Below, piece after piece: positions 42,841-61,048 of a stretch of DNA of 64,000 nt. The position numbers and the translations under genes were made by a program. The notes under the pieces were generated by a model, which was not told the origin of the DNA, ran no database searches, and saw only the letters and a list, made by a program, of their open reading frames with translations. Each line of letters starts with the position of its first letter. Position 1 is the stretch's first letter. The stretch is from Podarcis liolepis (lineage: Eukaryota), in the NCBI GenBank assembly GCA_965112155.1, contig OZ218102.1; one strand, given 5' to 3'.

Positions 42841-43382
42841 GGTAATATAGTATATACCGGTAGTTCAGATACTGATGCAAAGCAGTACATGCTGTTATGG
42901 TCCGTGCTGCCCCCTTATGTTCATTACACCCATGCCCACTTTGAGCATCTTGAAAGGGTTGACATGTGTATATCTCAAGCATAAATTGAAATCACCTGCT
43001 TAATACTGGTTGTGAAGCCAACCCTAAGATTAAAGCTTTATAGCACTTTTGGAAAGCATGGCATCAGCATTGTTGGCAGGCATGCACTTAGGTAGCTGTC
43101 TGTAGTGCCATGCCACGTTGACAGGGCAACTGGCATGCCTGGACATTTCATGGGAAATCTAAAAAAGCAGAAGGGTGGCAAAGTCCACCATGCTCAGTTT
43201 CTGCCCAGCAAACCTTCATCTGTTTCATCCATGGCTACCTTCCTTACAGAACCGATAATTCTGCATGGTTTGGTTGAACCCATCTCATGTTACCTGGTAT
43301 GTGCCTTACAAATTCCTCCGAAACAAGGTGGGCGTTCACATACTTTCTTCTTTTATTTAGACACACACACAAACACTGTGTG

Positions 43383-43733
43383 ATGGCCTGGGATTCCGAT
43401 TCGGAGGATGAAACAGAGGAATCCCAGCCTGCACAAGAGTCCCCGCCTCCAGGGCCGGCTGAACTGGGGCAAGGCCTAGATGCTGAAGAACCTGCACCTG
43501 TGGCAGTGCATCAGGAGCTGGCCCCAGGTGAAACCCTTCTGGCCCCAGAGAGGCTTGACGACTCAGTGGCCACAGGTGAGCCTCCTCCAGGGCCCAGTAA
43601 CCCTTCGGCCTCTCCTGATCTGCAGAGGCTTAGGGCAGAGAGGCGAAGGGAACTGGTTGCCCCCAGGAGGAGTGCTCGCCTTAAGGCCAGAGGAGGCGGG
43701 GCTCCTGGGGGCCGGGACCGCCCCTGGCCTTAG
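43383..43733 (+). CDS. U3-encoded 116-aa acidic/Pro-rich then basic ORF; same sequence as the Pol C-terminal tail except one residue
   Basis: MAWDSDSEDETEE...PRRSARLKARGG...RPWP*; ATG in GTGATGG context; independent translation unproven. Confidence 0.4.
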   Translation: MAWDSDSEDETEESQPAQESPPPGPAELGQGLDAEEPAPVAVHQELAPGETLLAPERLDDSVATGEPPPGPSNPSASPDLQRLRAERRRELVAPRRSARLKARGGGAPGGRDRPWP

Positions 43734-43738
43734 AAGAG

Positions 43739-43780
43739 GACAAAAGCCCAGTCAGCCCGGCCCCAGGTTGCGGGAGCAAC
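43739..43780 (+). promoter_or_regulatory. Putative TATA-like box (GACAAAAG) and transcript 5' end/self-primer GCGGGAGCAA
   Basis: Related solo LTR at 60401 has GATAAAAG...GTGGGAGCAAC with similar spacing; GC-box-like elements upstream. Confidence 0.55.
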
Positions 43781-44002
43781 GTCATTGTTGGCTTCGGACC
43801 TCCCTGTGTTCCTGATTCCTGCTCGGCCTCCTGTTCCTGACTATCCGGTACTCCTGTTCCCGACCATCCGGTGTTCCTGTTCCCTGCACAGCCTCCTGTT
43901 CCAGCGTACCTGTTCCCCGCCCGGCTCTCTGCCTCGGACATTGCCCCTCTTCGTGTGGACTCTACTACGCCCAAGGTACCTTACCCCCGGGACCAGCACA
44001 GT

Positions 44003-44012
44003 TTGCTCCCGC
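44003..44012 (+). promoter_or_regulatory. Primer-binding site, self-priming type
   Basis: TTGCTCCCGC, 2 nt after the LTR end, is the exact reverse complement of LTR 43770-43779; no TGG tRNA-type PBS. Confidence 0.75.
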
Positions 44013-44063
44013 CACACCCGCACTCCCCCTTCATAGGGGTGCGTTCGGGAAGAGCCAGAGGCC

Positions 44064-44960
44064 ATGGCTGAACAGGCGGCTACACTGGTGGCTTTGGCCC
44101 AGGAGAACCAGGCCTTGACTCACACCGTGCAGCAGCTCAGCGACGCGGTTGTGGCACTTCAGCAACGCTTGGAAGCCCTACCGGCTCCTGGGGCCGACGC
44201 CCCGGCTCCGGGCAAGTACCCAGTGGCTTTGCCTGAGAAATTTGATGGAGCCCCGGCCAGCTTTCCCATGTTCCTGGCCCAGGCCAAGCTGTATATTCAG
44301 GGGCGAGCCCGGAACTTTCCTGACGACCGCACCAAGGTGCACTTTTTGATTAGTTTGTTAAAGGACCAGGCGGCCAAGTGGGCGTTGCCGCTACTCAGGC
44401 AAGACTCCCCCTTGCTGGCAGACTATACGGGGTTTTGCAATCATTTGGAGGCCGCGTTCGGCAACCCCCAGAAAGAGAGTCAAGCCAACCGGGCGATTCG
44501 GCGTTTGAAACAGGGCAAGTCCACGGTGGCCACATATACCACGGAGTTTCGGCTGTTGGCACACGACTTGACCTGGAATGACTCGGCACTGCGGGACCAG
44601 TATCTCGAAGGGCTTTCGGACGAGGTACTGGACCAGTTGGCCACAATGGAACGCCCCACCACGCTGGACACTCTCATTCAACGGAGTCTACAAATAGACG
44701 ACCGGTTGGAGGATCGTCGTCAGGCCCGGGGTCGCCGACACTCCCAGTTCACGGCACCAGCTTTTTCCGGCAGCCCCACGGTCACAACTGATTTAACGGA
44801 GGAGCCTATGCAGCTCGGGGCAGTGCGGCCACGCCTTTCCCCCGCAGAGAAGGCGCGGCGTCGGGAGGGAAATCTCTGTCTTTACTGTGGCGGAAGTGGA
44901 CACTTCGCTCGGTCCTGCCCTGAGAAACGCCAGCCGCAGGGAAACCGCCAACCCCAGTAG
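44064..44960 (+). CDS. gag: Gag (PEG10/RTL-like capsid and CCHC nucleocapsid), 298 aa
   Basis: N-terminal coiled coil, LPEKFDG, EEPMQLG, zinc knuckle CLYCGGSGHFARSC. Confidence 0.93.
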   Translation: MAEQAATLVALAQENQALTHTVQQLSDAVVALQQRLEALPAPGADAPAPGKYPVALPEKFDGAPASFPMFLAQAKLYIQGRARNFPDDRTKVHFLISLLKDQAAKWALPLLRQDSPLLADYTGFCNHLEAAFGNPQKESQANRAIRRLKQGKSTVATYTTEFRLLAHDLTWNDSALRDQYLEGLSDEVLDQLATMERPTTLDTLIQRSLQIDDRLEDRRQARGRRHSQFTAPAFSGSPTVTTDLTEEPMQLGAVRPRLSPAEKARRREGNLCLYCGGSGHFARSCPEKRQPQGNRQPQ

Positions 44961-45006
44961 CTGATGGCCCTAGCTACCGGGGGTCCCAAACCGTACAGAA
45001 TGGGCC
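44939..45006 (+). promoter_or_regulatory. -1 programmed ribosomal frameshift signal (G GGA AAC plus H-type pseudoknot)
   Basis: Heptamer 44939-44945 is in gag phase and the -1 frame is open into pol; stem 1 ACCCCAGTAGCT/AGCTACCGGGGGT; stem 2 GGCCC (44966-44970)/GGGCC (45002-45006). Confidence 0.8.
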
Positions 45007-48000
45007 CGCACCAATGGACTTGCAACATCTTATGGTTTCGGTACGTTTATACCCTCCAGGGGGGCCCTGGATCCTCACCCATGCTTTGGTAGATTCAGGG
45101 GCGACCCGCTCCTATATGGACGCTGCTTTTGCCACCCGTCATCAGGTGCCACTTCGGAACAAGCCAGTACCGATCCAGGTGGAAGCGATTGACGGACGAC
45201 TTCTGCGTTCAGGTGCTGTTACTCAGGAGACCCAGCCCCTGGTCCTGTGTCTCCAGCAGCACCGGGAGTTGCGAACTTTGGACATTGCTTCTATGCCCCG
45301 CTTCCCCCTGGTGCTCGGGATGGACTGGCTGGAAGCCCACAACGTTCAGATTGACTGGGTCAAACGGACCGTGCACTTCCCAGACCCATGTTCCCATGCT
45401 CAATCCGGAACGCTGGCGGCCGCGCCCTCAGAGGAGGCAGCACCCACGCTCCCAGCCGTGTACCAGGACTACCAGGACGTGTTCGAGGAACGGGGGGCAG
45501 ACCAGCTGCCGCCGCATCGGCCTTTTGACTGCGGCATAGACCTCCAACCCGGAGCGCCTTTACCAGTGAGTCGCTTATATTCCCTAACAGAGCCAGAGCG
45601 CGAGGCTTTGCAGGACTTCTTGCGCAAGAACCTGGAGCGTGGGTTCATTAGGCCTTCCACCTCGCCTACCGCGGCACCAGTGCTTTTCGTTAAGAAGAAA
45701 TGTGGGGAACTCCGCCCTTGCCATGATTACCGAGCCCTGAACAAAATTACCGTCCCAGACCGGTACCCCTTACCCCTTATCTCGGAGCTGCTGGAGCGGG
45801 TGCAAGGGGCACAGGTGTTCACCAAGCTGGACCTCCGAGGGGCCTACAACTTGATTCGGATCCGAGCCGGGGATGAGTGGAAGACAGCGTTTGGGACCCG
45901 GTACGGGCAGTTCGAATATTTGGTTATGCCTTTCGGTTTGTGCAACGCGCCTGCTGTGTTCCAACGCTACATCAACCACGTGTTTCAGGACTTGTTAGAC
46001 AAGTACGTGGTGGTGTATTTGGATGACATACTGATTTACTCCCGTGACCCGGCTCACCATGAGGGACATGTCCGGACCGTGCTGCAGCGCTTGCGTGAGC
46101 ACCGTTTGTACGCAAAGCTCATCAAGTGCGAGTTCCATCAGCGGACTGTGGACTTCCTTGGTCACCGGCTCTCTCCAGATGGGGTGCAAATGGACCCGGG
46201 GAAGGTGACAGCGGTTCGAGAATGGGCGGCACCCCGGAACCGCAAGGACCTACAGCGTTTCCTGGGGTTCGCCAATTACTACCGGACCTTCATCGCTGAT
46301 TATGCTCATCGCACCACCCCGTTGACCCGGCTACTGCGCCCAAAGACGCCGTTTTCCTGGGACAAGGAGGCAGAGGAGGCGTTTCAGGGGTTGAAGGCCT
46401 GTTTCCAGAGGGCACCAATCTTACAACATCCTGACCCCTCTCGACCTTTTGTGGTGGAGACCGACGCCTCCAGTACGGCTCTCGGTGCCGTCTTGTCTCA
46501 ACAGATTGGGCCTGAAGCGCCACTCTTACCCTGTGCCTTCTATTCCCGCCAGCTCCTACCAGCGGAGCGTAACTATACTGTGTGGGAGCGGGAACTACTG
46601 GCCATCAAGGTAGCCTTTGAGGTCTGGCGCCACCATCTTGAGGGGGCACGACATCCGGTGGAGGTGAGAACCGACCACCGGAACCTGGAGTACCTCCAGA
46701 CCACCCGCAAGCTGAACCAAAGACAGATCCGGTGGGCGTTGTTCTTTTCCCGGTTCCAGTTCCGGATCCGCTACATCCCTAGCTCTCAGAATCAGAAGGC
46801 GGATGCCCTGTCCCGGAAACCTGAAGACAACGCAGACACGGTACAGCAAGCAGAACCCACCACGATCCTACCTCCGGCTGCATTCCTGGCCACCCAGGAG
46901 GCGCAGCCACTGCAGGTTCGGGTGCGGGAACAGCAGCGGGTCGACGCTTGGGCCCAGGATCGGCTCCGGGAGCTGGCTGAAGGGTCCAGCCCACAGTATC
47001 CGGGACTGGTCCTGCATCAGGGCCTTCTGCTGCATCACGGTCGTCTGTACATCCCGCCAGGGCCACTACGGCTGGAGGTTCTCCGGATGGCCCATGATGC
47101 CCCAGCAGCGGGGCACTTTGGACGGTATCGGACCACCCATCTGGTCAGTCGAGAGTTTTGGTGGCCCCGCCTGAAGGCTGACGTGGCTCGCTACGTTGCT
47201 GGTTGTGATGTCTGCCGGCGCGCCAAGGGACCTACCGGGCGACCCCCCGGCCTACTTCAGCCATTGCCAGTTCCACCGCGTCCTTGGCACACGGTTTCAT
47301 TGGACTTTATAGTGGACTTACCCTCGTCTCGTGGCTGTACCTGCCTTCTGGTTTTCTCCGACCATTTCACCAAGATGGTGCACTGCGCTCCCTGTCCATC
47401 TGTACCCACAGCCAAGGAAACTGCTCAGCTGTACCTTCAGCATGTCTTCCGCTTGCATGGCCTACCTGAGCGTGTGGTGTCCGACCGGGGCGTTCAGTTC
47501 ACATCCCGGTTCTGGCGAGCATTACACCAGACCCTCGGGACAGAGGTCTGCCTCTCGTCAGCCTACCACCCACAGACCGATGGCCAGACGGAACGGGCGA
47601 ACGCGGTGCTGGAGCAGTACCTCCGGTGTTACTGCAGTTACCAGCAGGATGACTGGGTCGACCACCTGGCATTGGCAGAGTTCGCCTATAACAACGCGGT
47701 GAATGCGTCCACCCAGCAGACCCCGTTCCAGGCCAGTTATGGTTATCATCCACGGCTGTTTCCAGAGGTGCTGCCGGCGTCCGCAGTCCCGGCGGTGACG
47801 GAGTGGCTTCAAGAGCTCCAGTCCCAGCAACAGCTTTTGGTGGAGCAACTGCACCAGGCCAAGGAAGCGTACAAAGCCCAGGCCGACCGCCACCGCCAGG
47901 TGGGGCCGGAACTTCGCGTTGGTGACCTGGTTTGGCTCTCCACTCGCCACCTCCACCCCTCTCGACCTTCGCGGAAGTTGGACGCCCGCTTCACCGGCCC

Positions 48001-48736
48001 GTTCCCTATCGTAGACCAAGTCTCTCCTGTGGCATTTCGTCTCCGGTTACCCGCAACACTGAAGGTTCACCCGGTCTTCCACAGGTCCCTTTTGAGTCCG
48101 GTGGCCCCACCCGACGAGTTCCACCCGAACCGTCCCCGACCGCAGCCAGTGTTGGTTCGGGGAGAGCCTGAGTACGAGGTGGAACGCATCCTGGACTCCC
48201 GATACCGCAGGGGAAAGCTGCAGTATCTCATTGACTGGAAGGGGTACGGACTGGAGGACCGTTCCTGGGAACCAGCGGCCAACATCCACGCACCTGCCTG
48301 CCTCCGAGAGTTCCATGCGACGTACCCCGGCAAGCCGGGTCCGGACCCTCGGTTGAGGGGGGGGCCTGGGAGGGGGGATGGTGTGATGGCCTGGGATTCC
48401 GATTCGGAGGATGAAACAGAGGAATCCCAGCCTGCACAAGAGTCCCCGCCTCCAGGGCCGGCTGAACTGGGGCAAGGCCTAGATGCTGAAGAACCTGCAC
48501 CTGTGGCAGTGCATCAGGAGCTGGCCCCAGGTGAAACCCTTCTGGCCCCAGAGAGGCTTGACGACTCAGTGGCCACAGGTGAGCCTCCTCCAGGGCCCAG
48601 TAACCCTTCGACCTCTCCTGATCTGCAGAGGCTTAGGGCAGAGAGGCGAAGGGAACTGGTTGCCCCCAGGAGGAGTGCTCGCCTTAAGGCCAGAGGAGGC
48701 GGGGCTCCTGGGGGCCGGGACCGCCCCTGGCCTTAG
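44939..48736 (+). CDS. pol: Pol: protease, RT, RNase H, integrase, chromodomain and LTR-encoded tail; expressed as Gag-Pol by frameshift (first ATG at 45014)
   Basis: ALVDSGA (DSG 45092-45100), YLDD (46016-46027), VETDAS, HHCC (HDAPAAGH..CDVC), SLDFI/SDRG/GQTER, GPF motif, chromodomain EYEVERILDSR..YLIDWKGY..SWEP; no stop codons. Confidence 0.95.
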   Translation, partial: GKPPTPVADGPSYRGSQTVQNGPAPMDLQHLMVSVRLYPPGGPWILTHALVDSGATRSYMDAAFATRHQVPLRNKPVPIQVEAIDGRLLRSGAVTQETQPLVLCLQQHRELRTLDIASMPRFPLVLGMDWLEAHNVQIDWVKRTVHFPDPCSHAQSGTLAAAPSEEAAPTLPAVYQDYQDVFEERGADQLPPHRPFDCGIDLQPGAPLPVSRLYSLTEPEREALQDFLRKNLERGFIRPSTSPTAAPVLFVKKKCGELRPCHDYRALNKITVPDRYPLPLISELLERVQGAQVFTKLDLRGAYNLIRIRAGDEWKTAFGTRYGQFEYLVMPFGLCNAPAVFQRYINHVFQDLLDKYVVVYLDDILIYSRDPAHHEGHVRTVLQRLREHRLYAKLIKCEFHQRTVDFLGHRLSPDGVQMDPGKVTAVREWAAPRNRKDLQRFLGFANYYRTFIADYAHRTTPLTRLLRPKTPFSWDKEAEEAFQGLKACFQRAPILQHPDPSRPFVVETDASSTALGAVLSQQIGPEAPLLPCAFYSRQLLPAERNYTVWERELLAIKVAFEVWRHHLEGARHPVEVRTDHRNLEYLQTTRKLNQRQIRWALFFSRFQFRIRYIPSSQNQKADALSRKPEDNADTVQQAEPTTILPPAAFLATQEAQPLQVRVREQQRVDAWAQDRLRELAEGSSPQYPGLVLHQGLLLHHGRLYIPPGPLRLEVLRMAHDAPAAGHFGRYRTTHLVSREFWWPRLKADVARYVAGCDVCRRAKGPTGRPPGLLQPLPVPPRPWHTVSLDFIVDLPSSRGCTCLLVFSDHFTKMVHCAPCPSVPTAKETAQLYLQHVFRLHGLPERVVSDRGVQFTSRFWRALHQTLGTEVCLSSAYHPQTDGQTERANAVLEQYLRCYCSYQQDDWVDHLALAEFAYNNAVNASTQQTPFQASYGYHPRLFPEVLPASAVPAVTEWLQELQSQQQLLVEQLHQAKEAYKAQADRHRQVGPELRVGDLVWLSTRHLHPSRPSRKLDARFTGPFPIVDQVSPVAFRLRLPATLKVHPVFHRSLLSPVAPPDEFHPNRPRPQPVLVRGEPEYEVERILDSRYRRGKLQYLIDWKGYGLEDRSWEPAANIHAPACLREFHATYPGKPGPDPRLRGGPGRGDGVMAWDSDSEDETEESQPAQESPPPGPAELGQGLDAEEPAPVAVHQELAPGETLLAPERLDDSVATGEPPPGPSNPSTSPDLQRLRAERRRELVAPRRSARLKARGGGAPGGRDRPWP
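48355..48381 (+). promoter_or_regulatory. Polypurine tract
   Basis: GAGGGGGGGGCCTGGGAGGGGGGATGG immediately before the 3' LTR. Confidence 0.8.
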
Positions 48737-49003
48737 AAGAGGACAAAAGCCCAGTCAGCCCGGCCCCAGGTTGCGGGAGCAACGTCGTTGTTGGCTTCGG
48801 ACCTCCCTGTGTTCCTGATTCCTGCTCGGCCTCCTGTTCCTGACTATCCGGTACTCCTGTTCCCGACCATCCGGTGTTCCTGTTCCCTGCACAGCCTCCT
48901 GTTCCAGCGTACCTGTTCCCCGCCCGGCTCTCTGCCTCGGACATTGCCCCTCTTCGTGTGGACTCTACTACGCCCAAGGTACCTTACCCCCGGGACCAGC
49001 ACA
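48382..49003 (+). repeat. 3' LTR
   Basis: Direct repeat of 43379-44000 (offset 5003); differences at 43608/48611 and 43784/48787. Confidence 0.95.
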
Positions 49004-49646: not shown

Positions 49647-50940
49647 TAACTCCCAGACTATTTTCAGGTAGGATTCAATCACATTCAGGCAAATTCAGTT
49701 TATGCAATTAGTTGATCTGGTGTTCTTGCACAACAAATTCACCGCCCCGCCGTGGCCTTTTTCTATACAGAAAGTGATGGGAAATGAGGACAGTTGTTGC
49801 TTGATGGAGCGTTATAAAATTTTTAAAAATGCTGTCTTTAATGCTATAATTCACCTTGTAACCTTGTGAAGGGTGGGTAATAAGATACCAACAACAATAA
49901 CAACAACAATAACAGCCCTCCCCACAAACAAATCAGAATGAAACCTCGCCAATTAGTCAGTGGTGTCTAACCTGCCAGCAAAGTTTGTGCAGGATGAACA
50001 TTTAAAATCTGTCAGGTTTTGTTTCTCTCAGTTTCTCATTTGTCCAACCTGAAGTTCAGTTTGCCGCATTTCCACATCGACTTGCAATTTTTGTTTTTAA
50101 AAGTCCACATGATAATTAATCAGCATTTTAGTGTGAATTTCCTCCAATATACATATTTCTGTATGCAATTTTGCTTATATTTTTGAAAGATGCTTCCCCC
50201 AATATAATGCATGTTAATTTCATCAATATATGCAGTTTTATCCACACTTAACTTCAGTAAATGCATTTTGCACACACTACTTGGCTGCAGAACTACATGG
50301 GAAAATTTGGAGAAGTGTGAATTTTAAATGCAAAGTGAATTAAATTTCTGCCCTTTCCTTAATGGATATAATGTTGTACACAGGCCAGAGGATTCAAGAT
50401 CTGTTTAATTCATGGGGGCCCTGCTTTGTTCTTGAAATGGAAAGATAAAATAAAGAGAGGAAACAATGATTTCTTATGCAGTCTCTAGATAGCCCGATAT
50501 TTCTCACAGATTTGCCTATTAGGAATGCATTTTTATCTCCTTAGGGTTGTCAGAACCAAAATGTAAAGAACCCTTGAGCTGTGAGAGCTCATCAGAAGTA
50601 ATAGTGCCTAATCATTTTAGGGTTAAATGAAGATAATCAGACAAAAGGACATTATCCCCCAGGCATACAATGTTACAAAGGCTGGTTGCAATCTGAAAAT
50701 ATGGAATTCAAGTCAATCATGCTTTCTTGATTAACATATGCAGTGAACGTGACCTTGATATACATAGGATAATCCTACAGTCTAGCAATATTGGTGGGCA
50801 CTAACATTGGTGTAGATTGGCCAGCAAAATTGACAGCAAACTGATAATTCTGTACACAAATTAGGCACTGATGGCAATACTGCAGACACCATACATAGGA
50901 ACATAGGAAGCTGTCAATCATATCCCTGGTCCATCTAGCT

Positions 50941-51076
50941 CAGGCATAGGCAAACTCAGCCCTCCAGAAGTTTTGGGACTACAACTCCCATCATCCCTGA
51001 CCACCGGTCCTGTTAGCTAGGGATGATGGGAGTTGTAGTCCCAAAACATCTGAAGGGCCGAGTTTGCCTATGCCTG
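50941..51076. mobile_element. Palindromic hAT MITE nested in a tRNA-derived SINE
   Basis: TIR CAGGCATAGGCAAACTC / GAGTTTGCCTATGCCTG; TSD ATCTAGCT/ATCTTGCT. Confidence 0.88.
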
Positions 51077-52822
51077 ATCTTGCTCTCTGACTGCCAGTGG
51101 CTCTCCAGGATTTCAGACAGGGAGTGAACCTGGGATCTTCTGCATGCAAGGCAGATGCTGTCTCACTGAGCTACAGCTCTTCCCCTCCTGACTAGCTCCT
51201 CAGTCATCCATCAATTTCTATTGCACATGCAAAGAAAAAGAAAATGTTCAGGGAACACCATGCCTGTTACTGATTGTCTGTGTGGTTTAGCGGATGAAGA
51301 ACAAAGACTCCATCTGCTAGAAATGTGTACATTTCTTGTAAGTTGATTAGTGGTCTTAAAAGAAGAACAAAATAGTTTTCCAAGAGACAAAAAGAGATGT
51401 TGATTTAAAGACCTCAATTTAGCACCAGGAGACATGGGAGAAATACATAAGAAGATGGACCTTCCTGAGATATGTAAGAGAGGAATACAAAGGAAGGAGA
51501 CAAGGTGCAGACAGCTGTATCGTTCTAGTGAACCTTGAAAATGAAAATGCTCAAATACAATATGGGGGGGAGATAGAAAATTAGGAAAGTGACATGGAGA
51601 TCCAAGAGGTGACAGGGTTCCAGTATTGGTTTTATGGTGGGAATGTGCTAGACAGGTTTGTGATAATTGGACAGGTAGACTATTTGGGAGGATATCTGCC
51701 TAGCTGACATCAAAGAGTGAATTAAAAAGTTCTTGTGTTTGGAAAGTCAGTCTTTTCTTCATAGAGCTTGCTTTGGTCAGAAGGAGTGTGTGTGAGAGAG
51801 AGGCATTCATGAATAAAAAGAGGAACAAAGGTGACAAGAGGAGGACTGGGAATTAGCTGGGACAGAGGCAGAAACTGATAAAGTGGAAACAAGGGCAAAT
51901 TTCTCAAGAATGTATTGGGGACAGTTTTACCCCAGAGCTGAAGGCACTCACAAAAAAATCCCCTCAAACGACTGAGTAGCTTAGCTGCCTGCTGAACCTC
52001 CAGTTAGCTTATATAATTAAAAAGATAGCAATAACTTTTCTTTAATACAATTTGCCTTTAAAAAACCCCAAACCAAACTAAATTCCACCTCACCCTTTCA
52101 GTGAAGTGTGTCGCAAAGTGTCTCAAACCGTTTTGAATTCTGTCATTTCCTCTGTCGCCAACAAATGCTTCTGACCTTTTTAAAAAAGGTATCCTCTGGA
52201 TTTATTGTACAGGAGGCCTCCCTCTCTTGATATGTTTTGTGTGTTATTTCCTAAAAATTTACATACTGCTTGATTGTAGAAACCAAGCAGTTAACAAAAA
52301 GAACAAAACAATGAAATTGTCAGTAAAAGCAATTAAAAGACAACTATGTGAAACATTCAAAAGATAATCAAAATCAACAATAAGCTAAAAACCTGATTGA
52401 AGCACATGTCAACATTCTCTATATCGGCAGGTGCTGAAAAGGGCAGAAAAGTCGCTTCACTGTATTTCTGTACTGAATTCTTAAGAGCTTGGCCTATGCA
52501 AAATGTTTCCTGTGTATGTGCATGTCTATAAAGATTCCTGCAGTTGATTCCCATGGCTTCAGTGCCTTCTGGATATATTTCTCAAATATCCTACACCATC
52601 ACAACAATTCTTTCCCAGATTTCTTAGGGATTTTTAATTTGTAACCCTTAGTTACCCACTCCATCTATTTTTCCCTTCCCCAGCATCTCTCTCTGTTTTC
52701 CACGCTAACAGGACTGCTGGAATCCCCCTCCTAAATTAAACCAGCCAAGTCACTGGCGTATGCATTGTTCTATTCCCACAGTTTCTGGTAGCTCCCCCAG
52801 AAAATGAAGCAGACTCAAAATA

Positions 52823-59372: not shown

Positions 59373-60378
59373 CAGTGTTTCCCAACCGGTGTTCCGCGGC
59401 ACACTAGTGTGCCGTGGAACTTTGCCTTGTGTTCCGTGGAGGCGGGCGAGGCGGGCGAGTCGGGCGGTGAGAGGCGGGGCGGCGGTGGCGAGCACACGCG
59501 GGGCGGCAAGCGAGCGAGCTCCCACATCCCATCGCCGCTCGCTACTGGGCCTGCGCATCCGCTCGCTACTGGGCCTGCCCCAGGAGGTGGGGTTGCGGGC
59601 ATCACGCCCTTCCCCATGTGAGCGGGGAATCCCATCCGCCCCCACGTGAGCGGGGAATCCCATCTCAGCCCCCGCGAGAGCAGGGGAATCCCATCCGGCC
59701 ACGCCTCCTGGCCAGCCAATCGGCTGGCTGGAGGGGGCGTGGCTTGCCCTTTTTAGGGCCGGAGCGGAGGGGGCTCGCCCTCTCTTCTCCGGCTAGCCCC
59801 ATCGCCGCTCGCTACATCCTATCACCGCTCGCTACTGGGCCTGCGCATGCTCGGCGAGCACACGCGGGGTGGCGAGCGAGCGAGCTCCCACATCCGACGG
59901 CACCAAGCAGGGGCCCTTGGCCGTGCCGGTGCCCACCGTGCCCGCCTCCGCCCAGGAGGGCGGCAAGCAGCCACCGCCACCACCACCCCCGCCGCTGCCC
60001 GGCAACCGCGCCGCCGCCCCCGGCTCCCCGCGGCGGGTGATCGTGCAGGCTTCGACGGGCGAGCTGCGAGCTCGGCGGGCAGCGCCTCCGTCCGCAGCGC
60101 CCGCCTCGCGGCTCTCATTCCCTGCCCCTGCCAAAGCTCACTCAGCCAAGCCGCGCTCTCCTTCCTGCCTCGCTTTGCTGCCTCCTCCCCCCCCCCACCC
60201 CCAAAGCTTGGAGGTTCCCCGGCAAGGGGGAGGAAAAAAAATTGAAAACTTTCACTTTCGTGCGTCCCTCCCGGCGTGACGCTGCGCGCTGACGTCACGG
60301 GGCTGTAATGGTGGTGTGCCGCGAGATTTTTTTCATCAAACAAGTGTGCCTTTGCCCAAAAAAGGTTGGGAAACACTG
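59373..60378. mobile_element. Non-autonomous hAT element (1006 bp) with GC/CpG-rich interior
   Basis: 15-bp perfect TIR CAGTGTTTCCCAACC; 8-bp TSD GGTTAGGC (59365-59372, 60379-60386). Confidence 0.93.
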
Positions 60379-60400
60379 GGTTAGGCCATCAGTGTCTACT

Positions 60401-61017
60401 TGTGCTGGGCCTGGGGGTAACCCATGCAACGCGGTCCAGGACCAGTCCAGAATCCAAAGGTTCCACTAGGAGACAGTCCGACAGGGCCAAGGCAGGACAC
60501 AAGGCAGGAAACCAGGCAAAGACAGGTACAGGATCTCAGGAAGGATCTAGCATACAGCAATGTTGCTCCCACAACCTGGGGCGGGGCCCAACAGCCTTTT
60601 ATCTTTGTCGGGGTAGTGGCCGGTCCTGATCCCCCGGTGACTCACCACCCTGTTTTGCCCGAAGGCGAGCACTCCTCCTGCGAGTACTCAGGTCTCTCCT
60701 TCTCTCTGCAGCTTGGGAGACGTCGGTGGGTTACTAGACCCAGGGGCTGCCTCAGCCTCCCCGACCAAACCGGTAGTGGAGCATCTGTAAGCGATGGCCC
60801 AGCTGAAGGCAATGAGGTAATCCCCGCATCTGGAGCCAGGGCAGGCTCAGGCCCCTGACTCAGCTCAGCTGGTGTTTGTTGCAGGGGAACCTGTGCAGAC
60901 TGGGACTCTTCAGGATCAAGCCCCAGACTTGGTTCAGGTGATGCCTGAGGCAAAGGATCTGGTGCAGACTGAGTCTCCTCTGGTTCCGAGTCCGAGCCCA
61001 AGTCCCAGGCCATCACA
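60401..61017 (-). mobile_element. Solo LTR (617 bp) related to the full-length element
   Basis: Minus strand TGTGATGGCCTGGGA...TTACCCCCAGGCCCAGCACA; TSD CTACT (60396-60400, 61018-61022). Confidence 0.92.
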
Positions 61018-61048
61018 CTACTATTCATGATAGCTATGTACAATTGTC

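Follow-up and report, generated by a model that had tools for sequence, protein, structure and literature searches.

An LTR-coded Pol tail in Podarcis chromoviruses ends in an HMGN-like motif and may anchor integration complexes to nucleosomes

The window analysed here is a stretch of 64,000 nucleotides from Podarcis liolepis (contig OZ218102.1). Near its end lies a solo LTR (60401..61017, minus strand; 617 nt with TG...CA ends) of subfamily B of a Ty3/Gypsy chromovirus. It is flanked by the 5-bp target-site duplication AGTAG, with the upstream copy at 61018..61022 and the downstream copy at 60396..60400 on the same strand. The U3 of this LTR holds the remnant of a Pol C-terminal tail frame (60599..61013, minus strand). 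Read on the minus strand from 61013 it gives MAWDLGSDSEPEETQSA..., and APGSSNPPTSPKLQ and ERRRDLSTRRRSARLRAKQGG follow in two other frames. Within it the codons for RRSARL, an HMGN-like motif, occupy 60662..60679 (minus strand); in a predicted hairpin they also make up the 5' arm. A segment at 60561..60572 (minus strand), downstream of this frame, is complementary to the primer-binding site of B elements, and RNA would start there if the element primes itself in the way that PMC6317226 describes. The tail stop codon of subfamily B sits inside a TATA-like GATAAAAG box (60596-60603, minus strand); in the full-length element described below it comes just ahead of the equivalent TATA-like box.

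The first-pass annotation had called this a diverged sister solo LTR that keeps U3 peptide motifs, and the ends, the duplication and our rereading of the motifs bear that out. It had also described the peptide as broken by two frameshifts on the minus strand, which we place near 60765 and 60705. Aligned pairwise, all 29 of 29 sister copies give a gap near 60765, and 24 of 29 agree on the second frameshift, near 60705, in both its size and its 6-nt bin, so both are private to this copy. At least 40 sisters were scored among 1983 DNA candidates, the other 39 at 89-91% identity, so the solo is not a chance resemblance. It is a dead, ordinary decayed solo, and the interest lies in the tail and motif that it records. 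What the earlier description did not give is a cause: the U3 peptide is the end of Pol, copied into both LTRs. Two other probable mobile elements can be seen in the neighborhood. A 1006-bp element at 59373-60378, with CAGTGTTTCCCAA inverted ends, the 8-bp duplication GGTTAGGC and a GC-rich interior, ends 22 bp from the 3' end of the solo; it looks like a non-autonomous hAT-type DNA transposon. At 50937-51080 a 62-bp inverted repeat (94%, 20-nt spacer) is probably a small hairpin-like transposon.

The source of the peptide is clear from a full-length young sister element of subfamily A at 43379..49003 on the plus strand, flanked by the duplication CACTG. Its LTRs are 622 nt each and differ at 2 sites. 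The 5' LTR (43379..44000) carries a copy of the tail codons at 43383-43733, with the motif at 43665-43682, and is followed by a primer-binding site (44001..44012) that is complementary to LTR positions 43770-43781 and not to a tRNA end. Next come gag (44064..44960; Retrotrans_gag, Ty3_capsid and zf-CCHC) and pol (45014..48736), all on the plus strand. The 1240 codons of pol cover protease, RT, RNase H, integrase, a chromodomain (aa 1054-1101) and the tail. Beyond the chromodomain the frame crosses the polypurine tract and continues for 116 codons in the 3' LTR (48382-49003), so that the tail lies at 48386..48736 and RRSARL at 48668-48685. The tail is laid out as an acidic disordered linker, then a basic helix, then RRSARL, and its end reads ...RRELVAPRRSARLKARGG.... 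The annotation had reported matching peptides in the full-length element and 18 nt at 60662-60679 identical to it at the DNA level; we recovered both, with PGPSNPSASPDLQ in the 5' LTR and PSTSP in the 3' LTR.

Pfam finds the PR-RT-RH-IN order of a Ty3/Gypsy chromovirus in element A and a chromodomain at the integrase C-terminus (PF00385, E 1.3e-14), while the tail matches no Pfam family at E 0.1. Judged by eye, Tyr, Trp and Tyr presumably occupy the aromatic-cage positions of the chromodomain. Among named proteins the closest are Podarcis Gypsy Pols, at 97%. A pattern for the pol-LTR junction matched 485 times in the genome with forward places mostly counted twice, so there are roughly 300 A copies. 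A chromodomain-plus-tail query found full-length matches in at least 150 copies, most with frames of 1270 or 1566 codons. Three A-type junctions about 5005 bp apart at G000 C2:104475369-104485403 suggest a tandem array with LTRs in common. The gag-pol overlap of A contains GGGAAAC at 44939-44945, presumably a -1 frameshift site of the PEG10-like kind, and other A copies have gag and pol in a single frame of 1560-1564 codons. The self-complementary primer-binding site is seen in A and in two B loci (L080 and L081). If RNA starts at the primer-complementary segment of the LTR, then all of the tail codons would lie in U3 and be read solely from the 3' end of genomic RNA.

Subfamily B has 1983 candidates by DNA and 6485 by protein, of which the best 40 and 150 were scored. 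The 30 copies that we fetched are 8.4% apart on average, and 25 of them have a 5-bp target duplication when no more than one mismatch is allowed; most are therefore old solos. In 21 of the 30 the frame has no interruption between its first codon and the end of the motif, its length being 142 codons in most. RRSARL is intact in 16 of the 30 and altered in 14, as against intact in 37 of 37 A copies. The losses fall mostly at the CpG of the third Arg. B solos are not under protection at present; they are decaying. The coding regions seen for B are gag, part of pol and the integrase end. L080 and L081 have a B-type 5' LTR followed by the primer-binding site and gag; in the relic L116/L154 a single frame takes in integrase, chromodomain and polypurine tract and continues into a B-type LTR, with 2 stops in the compared stretch; and the junction is shorter in L119/L155. 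B was thus built like A, with pol extending into its 3' LTR. We came across no intact B element, and no frame longer than 265 codons among the best 150 of the 6485 protein matches. The exact pattern of polypurine tract plus B start had no match in the genome; a looser one matched 6 places, which are 2 B LTRs behind pol remains, 2 A-type junctions and 2 solos.

Comparing A with B allows the tail to be tested as protein. Over the alignable tail net dN is 0.22 and net dS is 1.22, which is near saturation (pS 0.62). The resulting dN/dS of 0.18 (bootstrap 0.08-0.34) is averaged over pairs drawn from 35 of 37 A and from 34 of 43 B LTR copies, many of the A copies being near-identical, after copies with a net frameshift or without a recognisable start were dropped. 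None of 1934 bootstrap replicates reached a net dN/dS of 1. The ratio is 0.14 in the 28 codons ahead of the motif and 0.39 in the middle, which aligns poorly. Outside the motif, 23 of the 46 residues common to A and B are written with different codons. With a net ratio of 0.18 between A and B, the tail was selected protein. The annotation had suggested protein-level constraint before the LTR went solo, naming a closed subfamily frame as contrary evidence; the low ratio, the differing codons and the 21 open B frames all agree with it. Within B the pairwise ratio is 0.51 (0.39-0.70), below the 1 expected of pure neutral decay. CpG decay, common source lineages and the choice of in-frame copies may account for this.

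The motif is conserved beyond Podarcis. An integrase search returned 165 proteins, the best 120 of which were examined. Among the matches listed, the closest outside Podarcis are Anolis Gypsy Pols, 58% identical over the integrase, with acidic tails ending in the motif. The end of the tail is present in 17 of the 30 Anolis proteins listed: 12 have RRSARI, 4 RRSLRI and 1 RSSARI. In these proteins (proteins alone were compared) the residues upstream of the motif vary widely and RRSxRI-AA[KR] is kept. The Podarcis and Anolis tails have no significant alignment (E = 0.22), and the chance of RRSAR[LIVM] in a shuffled Anolis tail is 3.5e-5. RRS.R occurs in none of 108 non-squamate Pol tails, of which just 9 are at least 100 aa long.

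An integrase tree of 41 sequences, with no named reference element among them and with P0139 excluded as too short, groups the 14 squamate sequences at 98/94. All of those with a tail have an acidic linker and an arginine-rich end. Within this group RRSxR[LI] is confined to the Podarcis A/B and Anolis lineages, which are not sisters, and the inner support is weak, so common ancestry and convergence of the motif are indistinguishable here. The Rhineura, Vipera-containing and second Podarcis lineages have acidic tails and arginine-rich ends without RRSxRL, some of the other squamate tails being single gene models that are possibly decayed. Since the lineages with the motif are not sisters and three others lack it, a generic basic end may be what matters. 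Long acidic tails are also found in P0224 and P0236 (Podarcis), P0049 (Rhineura), P0139 and P0160 (snakes) and P0177, with ends such as RRESRRRVSVK and RGRPVSLRPKR. These differing ends may be alternative chromatin tethers. The distant chromodomain protein P0125, the one match among 160 proteins screened, has the tail end LPLRRSARLAAAH, possibly an independent origin of an RRSARL-type end.

We also asked whether the genome contains a further RRSARL family, more distant than A and B. A junction pattern matched 7 places, one of them an A copy and none with the tail motif. An alternative-codon RRSARL pattern matched 6 places as against 2 for controls; 2 are B copies and 4 have no pol or LTR match. 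An Anolis tail query gave a best E of 3.3 in this genome, and a Rhineura protein query gave matches of A-type length alone. No Anolis- or P0125-family DNA turned up in metagenome and viral scans, and all ESM Atlas matches were below 0.8. Three truncated relics of another chromodomain family (L147-L149) have the LTR start TGTCATGGGGCA, each beside a LINE-like fragment.

How do these elements compare with known ones? They are like the Tf1/sushi group (V-clade) in their PR-RT-RH-IN-chromodomain order, 5-bp duplication and self-complementary primer-binding site, as PMC6317226 describes that group. They differ in having a tail of 116-142 residues after the chromodomain, in the 3' LTR, whereas most fungal, frog and other relatives stop within about 30-70 residues. 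Going by sequence, the element is a vertebrate chromovirus with what appears to be Tf1/sushi-type priming. The closest parallel to the tail is in plants. In group A of the CRM elements the pol frame enters the 3' LTR, where it encodes a CR motif that takes the place of the chromodomain and directs the element to centromeres (PMC3059260, PMC3605345 and PMC6317226). The lizard elements likewise extend pol into the 3' LTR with an LTR-coded, presumed targeting motif. However, they keep a chromodomain upstream of the LTR, they have a self-complementary primer site instead of one for tRNA-Met, their relatives are in lizards and not in a plant host, and their motif is HMGN-like, the CR motif being compared here by description.

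The resemblance of the motif to nucleosome-binding proteins is close. RRSARLKA in A and RRSARLRA in B each share 7 of 8 residues with the HMGN core RRSARLSA, and RRSARIAA of Anolis shares 7 of 8 with RRSARIAT of Dot5. The tail end has the RRS.RL core, the three arginines and the disordered setting of an HMGN-like acidic-patch motif. Such motifs are RRSARLSA in HMGN, RRSSRLTS in Dsup and RRSARIAT in Dot5 (PMC12487698, PMC13347269 and PMC12480509). HMGN2 and Dsup insert the arginines of RRSAR and RRSSR into the H2A-H2B acidic patch, according to PMC12487698, and yeast Dot5 needs RRSARIAT to bind the nucleosome acidic patch, according to PMC13347269. All of these have the motif within a disordered protein, as here, but on the retrotransposon polyprotein the binding is a prediction. 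The Pol tail is not a member of the HMGN family: its motif is a part of Pol and there is no HMGN domain in a small stand-alone protein.

AlphaFold2, run on a single sequence of 188 residues, gives a folded chromodomain, a low-confidence linker of about 90 residues, a helix at 150-164 and then the motif (mean pLDDT 61.5). A complex prediction of the last 45 residues with H2A/H2B of this genome, in which peptides are outside the calibration, scored 0.42 as against 0.02 for the best of 3 controls. Run contact agreement was at least 40% and partner pLDDT at least 45, with no interface given. In the calibration, 51 of 78 solved complexes reach the mark, as do 2 of 108 mismatches; the passes at or below 0.60 are 5 of the 78 solved complexes and all 4 passing mismatches. 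The score of 0.42 may reflect memory of solved HMGN-type complexes, and the model speaks weakly for acidic-patch-dependent binding of the tail to nucleosomes.

We believe these data are best read as a tether, with a probability of roughly 0.6: the RRSARL end of the tail would hold the integration complex on the nucleosome acidic patch. The tail would stay on integrase after proteolysis, the acidic disordered linker would provide reach, and the arginines of RRSARL would insert into the H2A-H2B acidic patch as those of HMGN2, Dsup and Dot5 do. Beside the chromodomain it would act as a general nucleosome anchor. It is likely that these lizard elements carry an undescribed second chromatin anchor beside the chromodomain. 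U3 is copied into both LTRs during replication, and recombination between LTRs leaves solos, which carry the tail codons as a fossil. As RNA would start downstream of those codons, the promoter of a solo would not drive production of the peptide.

Three other explanations need to be weighed. The one we give almost no weight is that the solo LTRs themselves express the peptide, starting from an ATG at LTR position 5, and that the host keeps them open. It would suit the 21 open B frames and the within-B ratio of 0.51, but two frameshifts interrupt the solo at 60401-61017, 14 of 30 copies have an altered motif, RNA would start downstream of the frame, and open frames are expected from age since the copies are just 8.4% apart. 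A stronger rival, though we think it unlikely, is a selected tail whose basic end acts as a nuclear-localisation signal or as a helix that binds nucleic acids in general, and whose likeness to HMGN is incidental. The different arginine-rich strings of the other squamate lineages fit this, as do the net charge of +7 in the last 30 residues as against -18 for the rest, the basic helix that AlphaFold2 places directly before the motif (150-164 of 188), and the C-terminal NLS of Ty1 integrase named in titles that PMC3605345 cites. A localisation signal fits less well with Anolis, where the residues before the motif vary freely and RRSxRI-AA[KR] is kept. A basic NLS does not require a conserved Ser or Leu/Ile, but here both are conserved and match the HMGN core, which agrees at 7 of 8 positions.

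The third possibility, improbable in our view, is that the 18-19 identical bases were kept mainly as a DNA or RNA element, with RRSARL riding along or the two constraints overlapping. The candidates are a promoter site, about 100 nt upstream of where RNA would start, or a hairpin close to the 3' end of genomic RNA. The annotation had raised a cis-element as a caveat and proposed looking for synonymous variation in the RRSARL codons. There is some: a silent change at the Leu third position, the sole motif variant above 5% in related organisms, recurs in the contigs of all 4 runs, which represent four organisms. None is fixed between A and B in the six codons. The other 5 of 6 third positions are invariant at the 5% threshold in the four related runs, and together with the lack of a fixed silent change this fits an overlapping DNA or RNA element. 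Variants at 48622-48658, in the helix ahead of the motif, are in the same kind of contigs all at third positions, 4 silent and one an Asp-to-Glu site, and we count them in favour of a selected protein. Unadjusted, the chance of six unchanged motif codons is 0.016, or 0.0045 when four- and six-fold codons alone are counted, but we picked the run post hoc and six in about 50 shared codons is not rare. All 10 A variants and most B copies are predicted to form a stem in which the motif bases make up the 5' arm, and the Leu variant preserves its pair (U-G to C-G). However, the hairpin z-scores are unremarkable, at -1.40, -1.42 and -1.03 in three copies and +0.29 in the solo at 60401-61017; longer windows give -0.03 for A and -1.84 and -2.52 for two B copies. 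The peptide is also kept in Anolis despite Leu-to-Ile and Ala-to-Leu changes, and a cis-element as the sole cause gives no account of a dN/dS of 0.18 over the tail. The caveat thus stands as far as the 18 nt identical in A and B and the predicted hairpin go, and is weakened by the Anolis replacements and the z-scores. That an overlapping promoter site or hairpin acts as a second constraint on the motif we regard as a little less than an even chance.

Returning to the tether, the fullest form of our proposal is that a clade of squamate chromoviruses grew a U3-coded Pol tail which in at least two lineages, lacertid and anole, ends in a true HMGN-type acidic-patch anchor. It would stand beside a chromodomain, overlie a promoter or RNA element with the shared bases serving both, and be the first of its kind on the integrase of a retrotransposon. 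We see this whole combination as a coin toss. In the openly accessible literature searched, as judged from listings and abstracts, there was no report of an HMGN-like motif on a retrotransposon. To our knowledge, the hold of vertebrate LTR retrotransposons on chromatin is barely known beyond the chromodomain. Viruses have acidic-patch tethers in prototype foamy virus Gag, KSHV LANA and CMV IE1 (PMC9040877, in an excerpt from which the word retrotransposon is absent) and in MLV p12 (excerpt of PMC5053271). These are likewise short arginine-anchor peptides that would hold an incoming genome on chromatin, but they sit on Gag or on proteins of DNA viruses and use other motifs, whereas here the peptide is at the Pol/integrase end of an LTR retrotransposon. 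An HMGN-type integrase anchor, if true, would be a counterpart to the foamy virus Gag tether and the plant CR motif, and mobile elements would join the short list of HMGN-like motifs with HMGN, Dsup and Dot5. Each solo LTR preserves a dated sample of the tail, since U3 encodes it, and if the proposal is true, thousands of solo LTRs would record the evolution of a chromatin tether.
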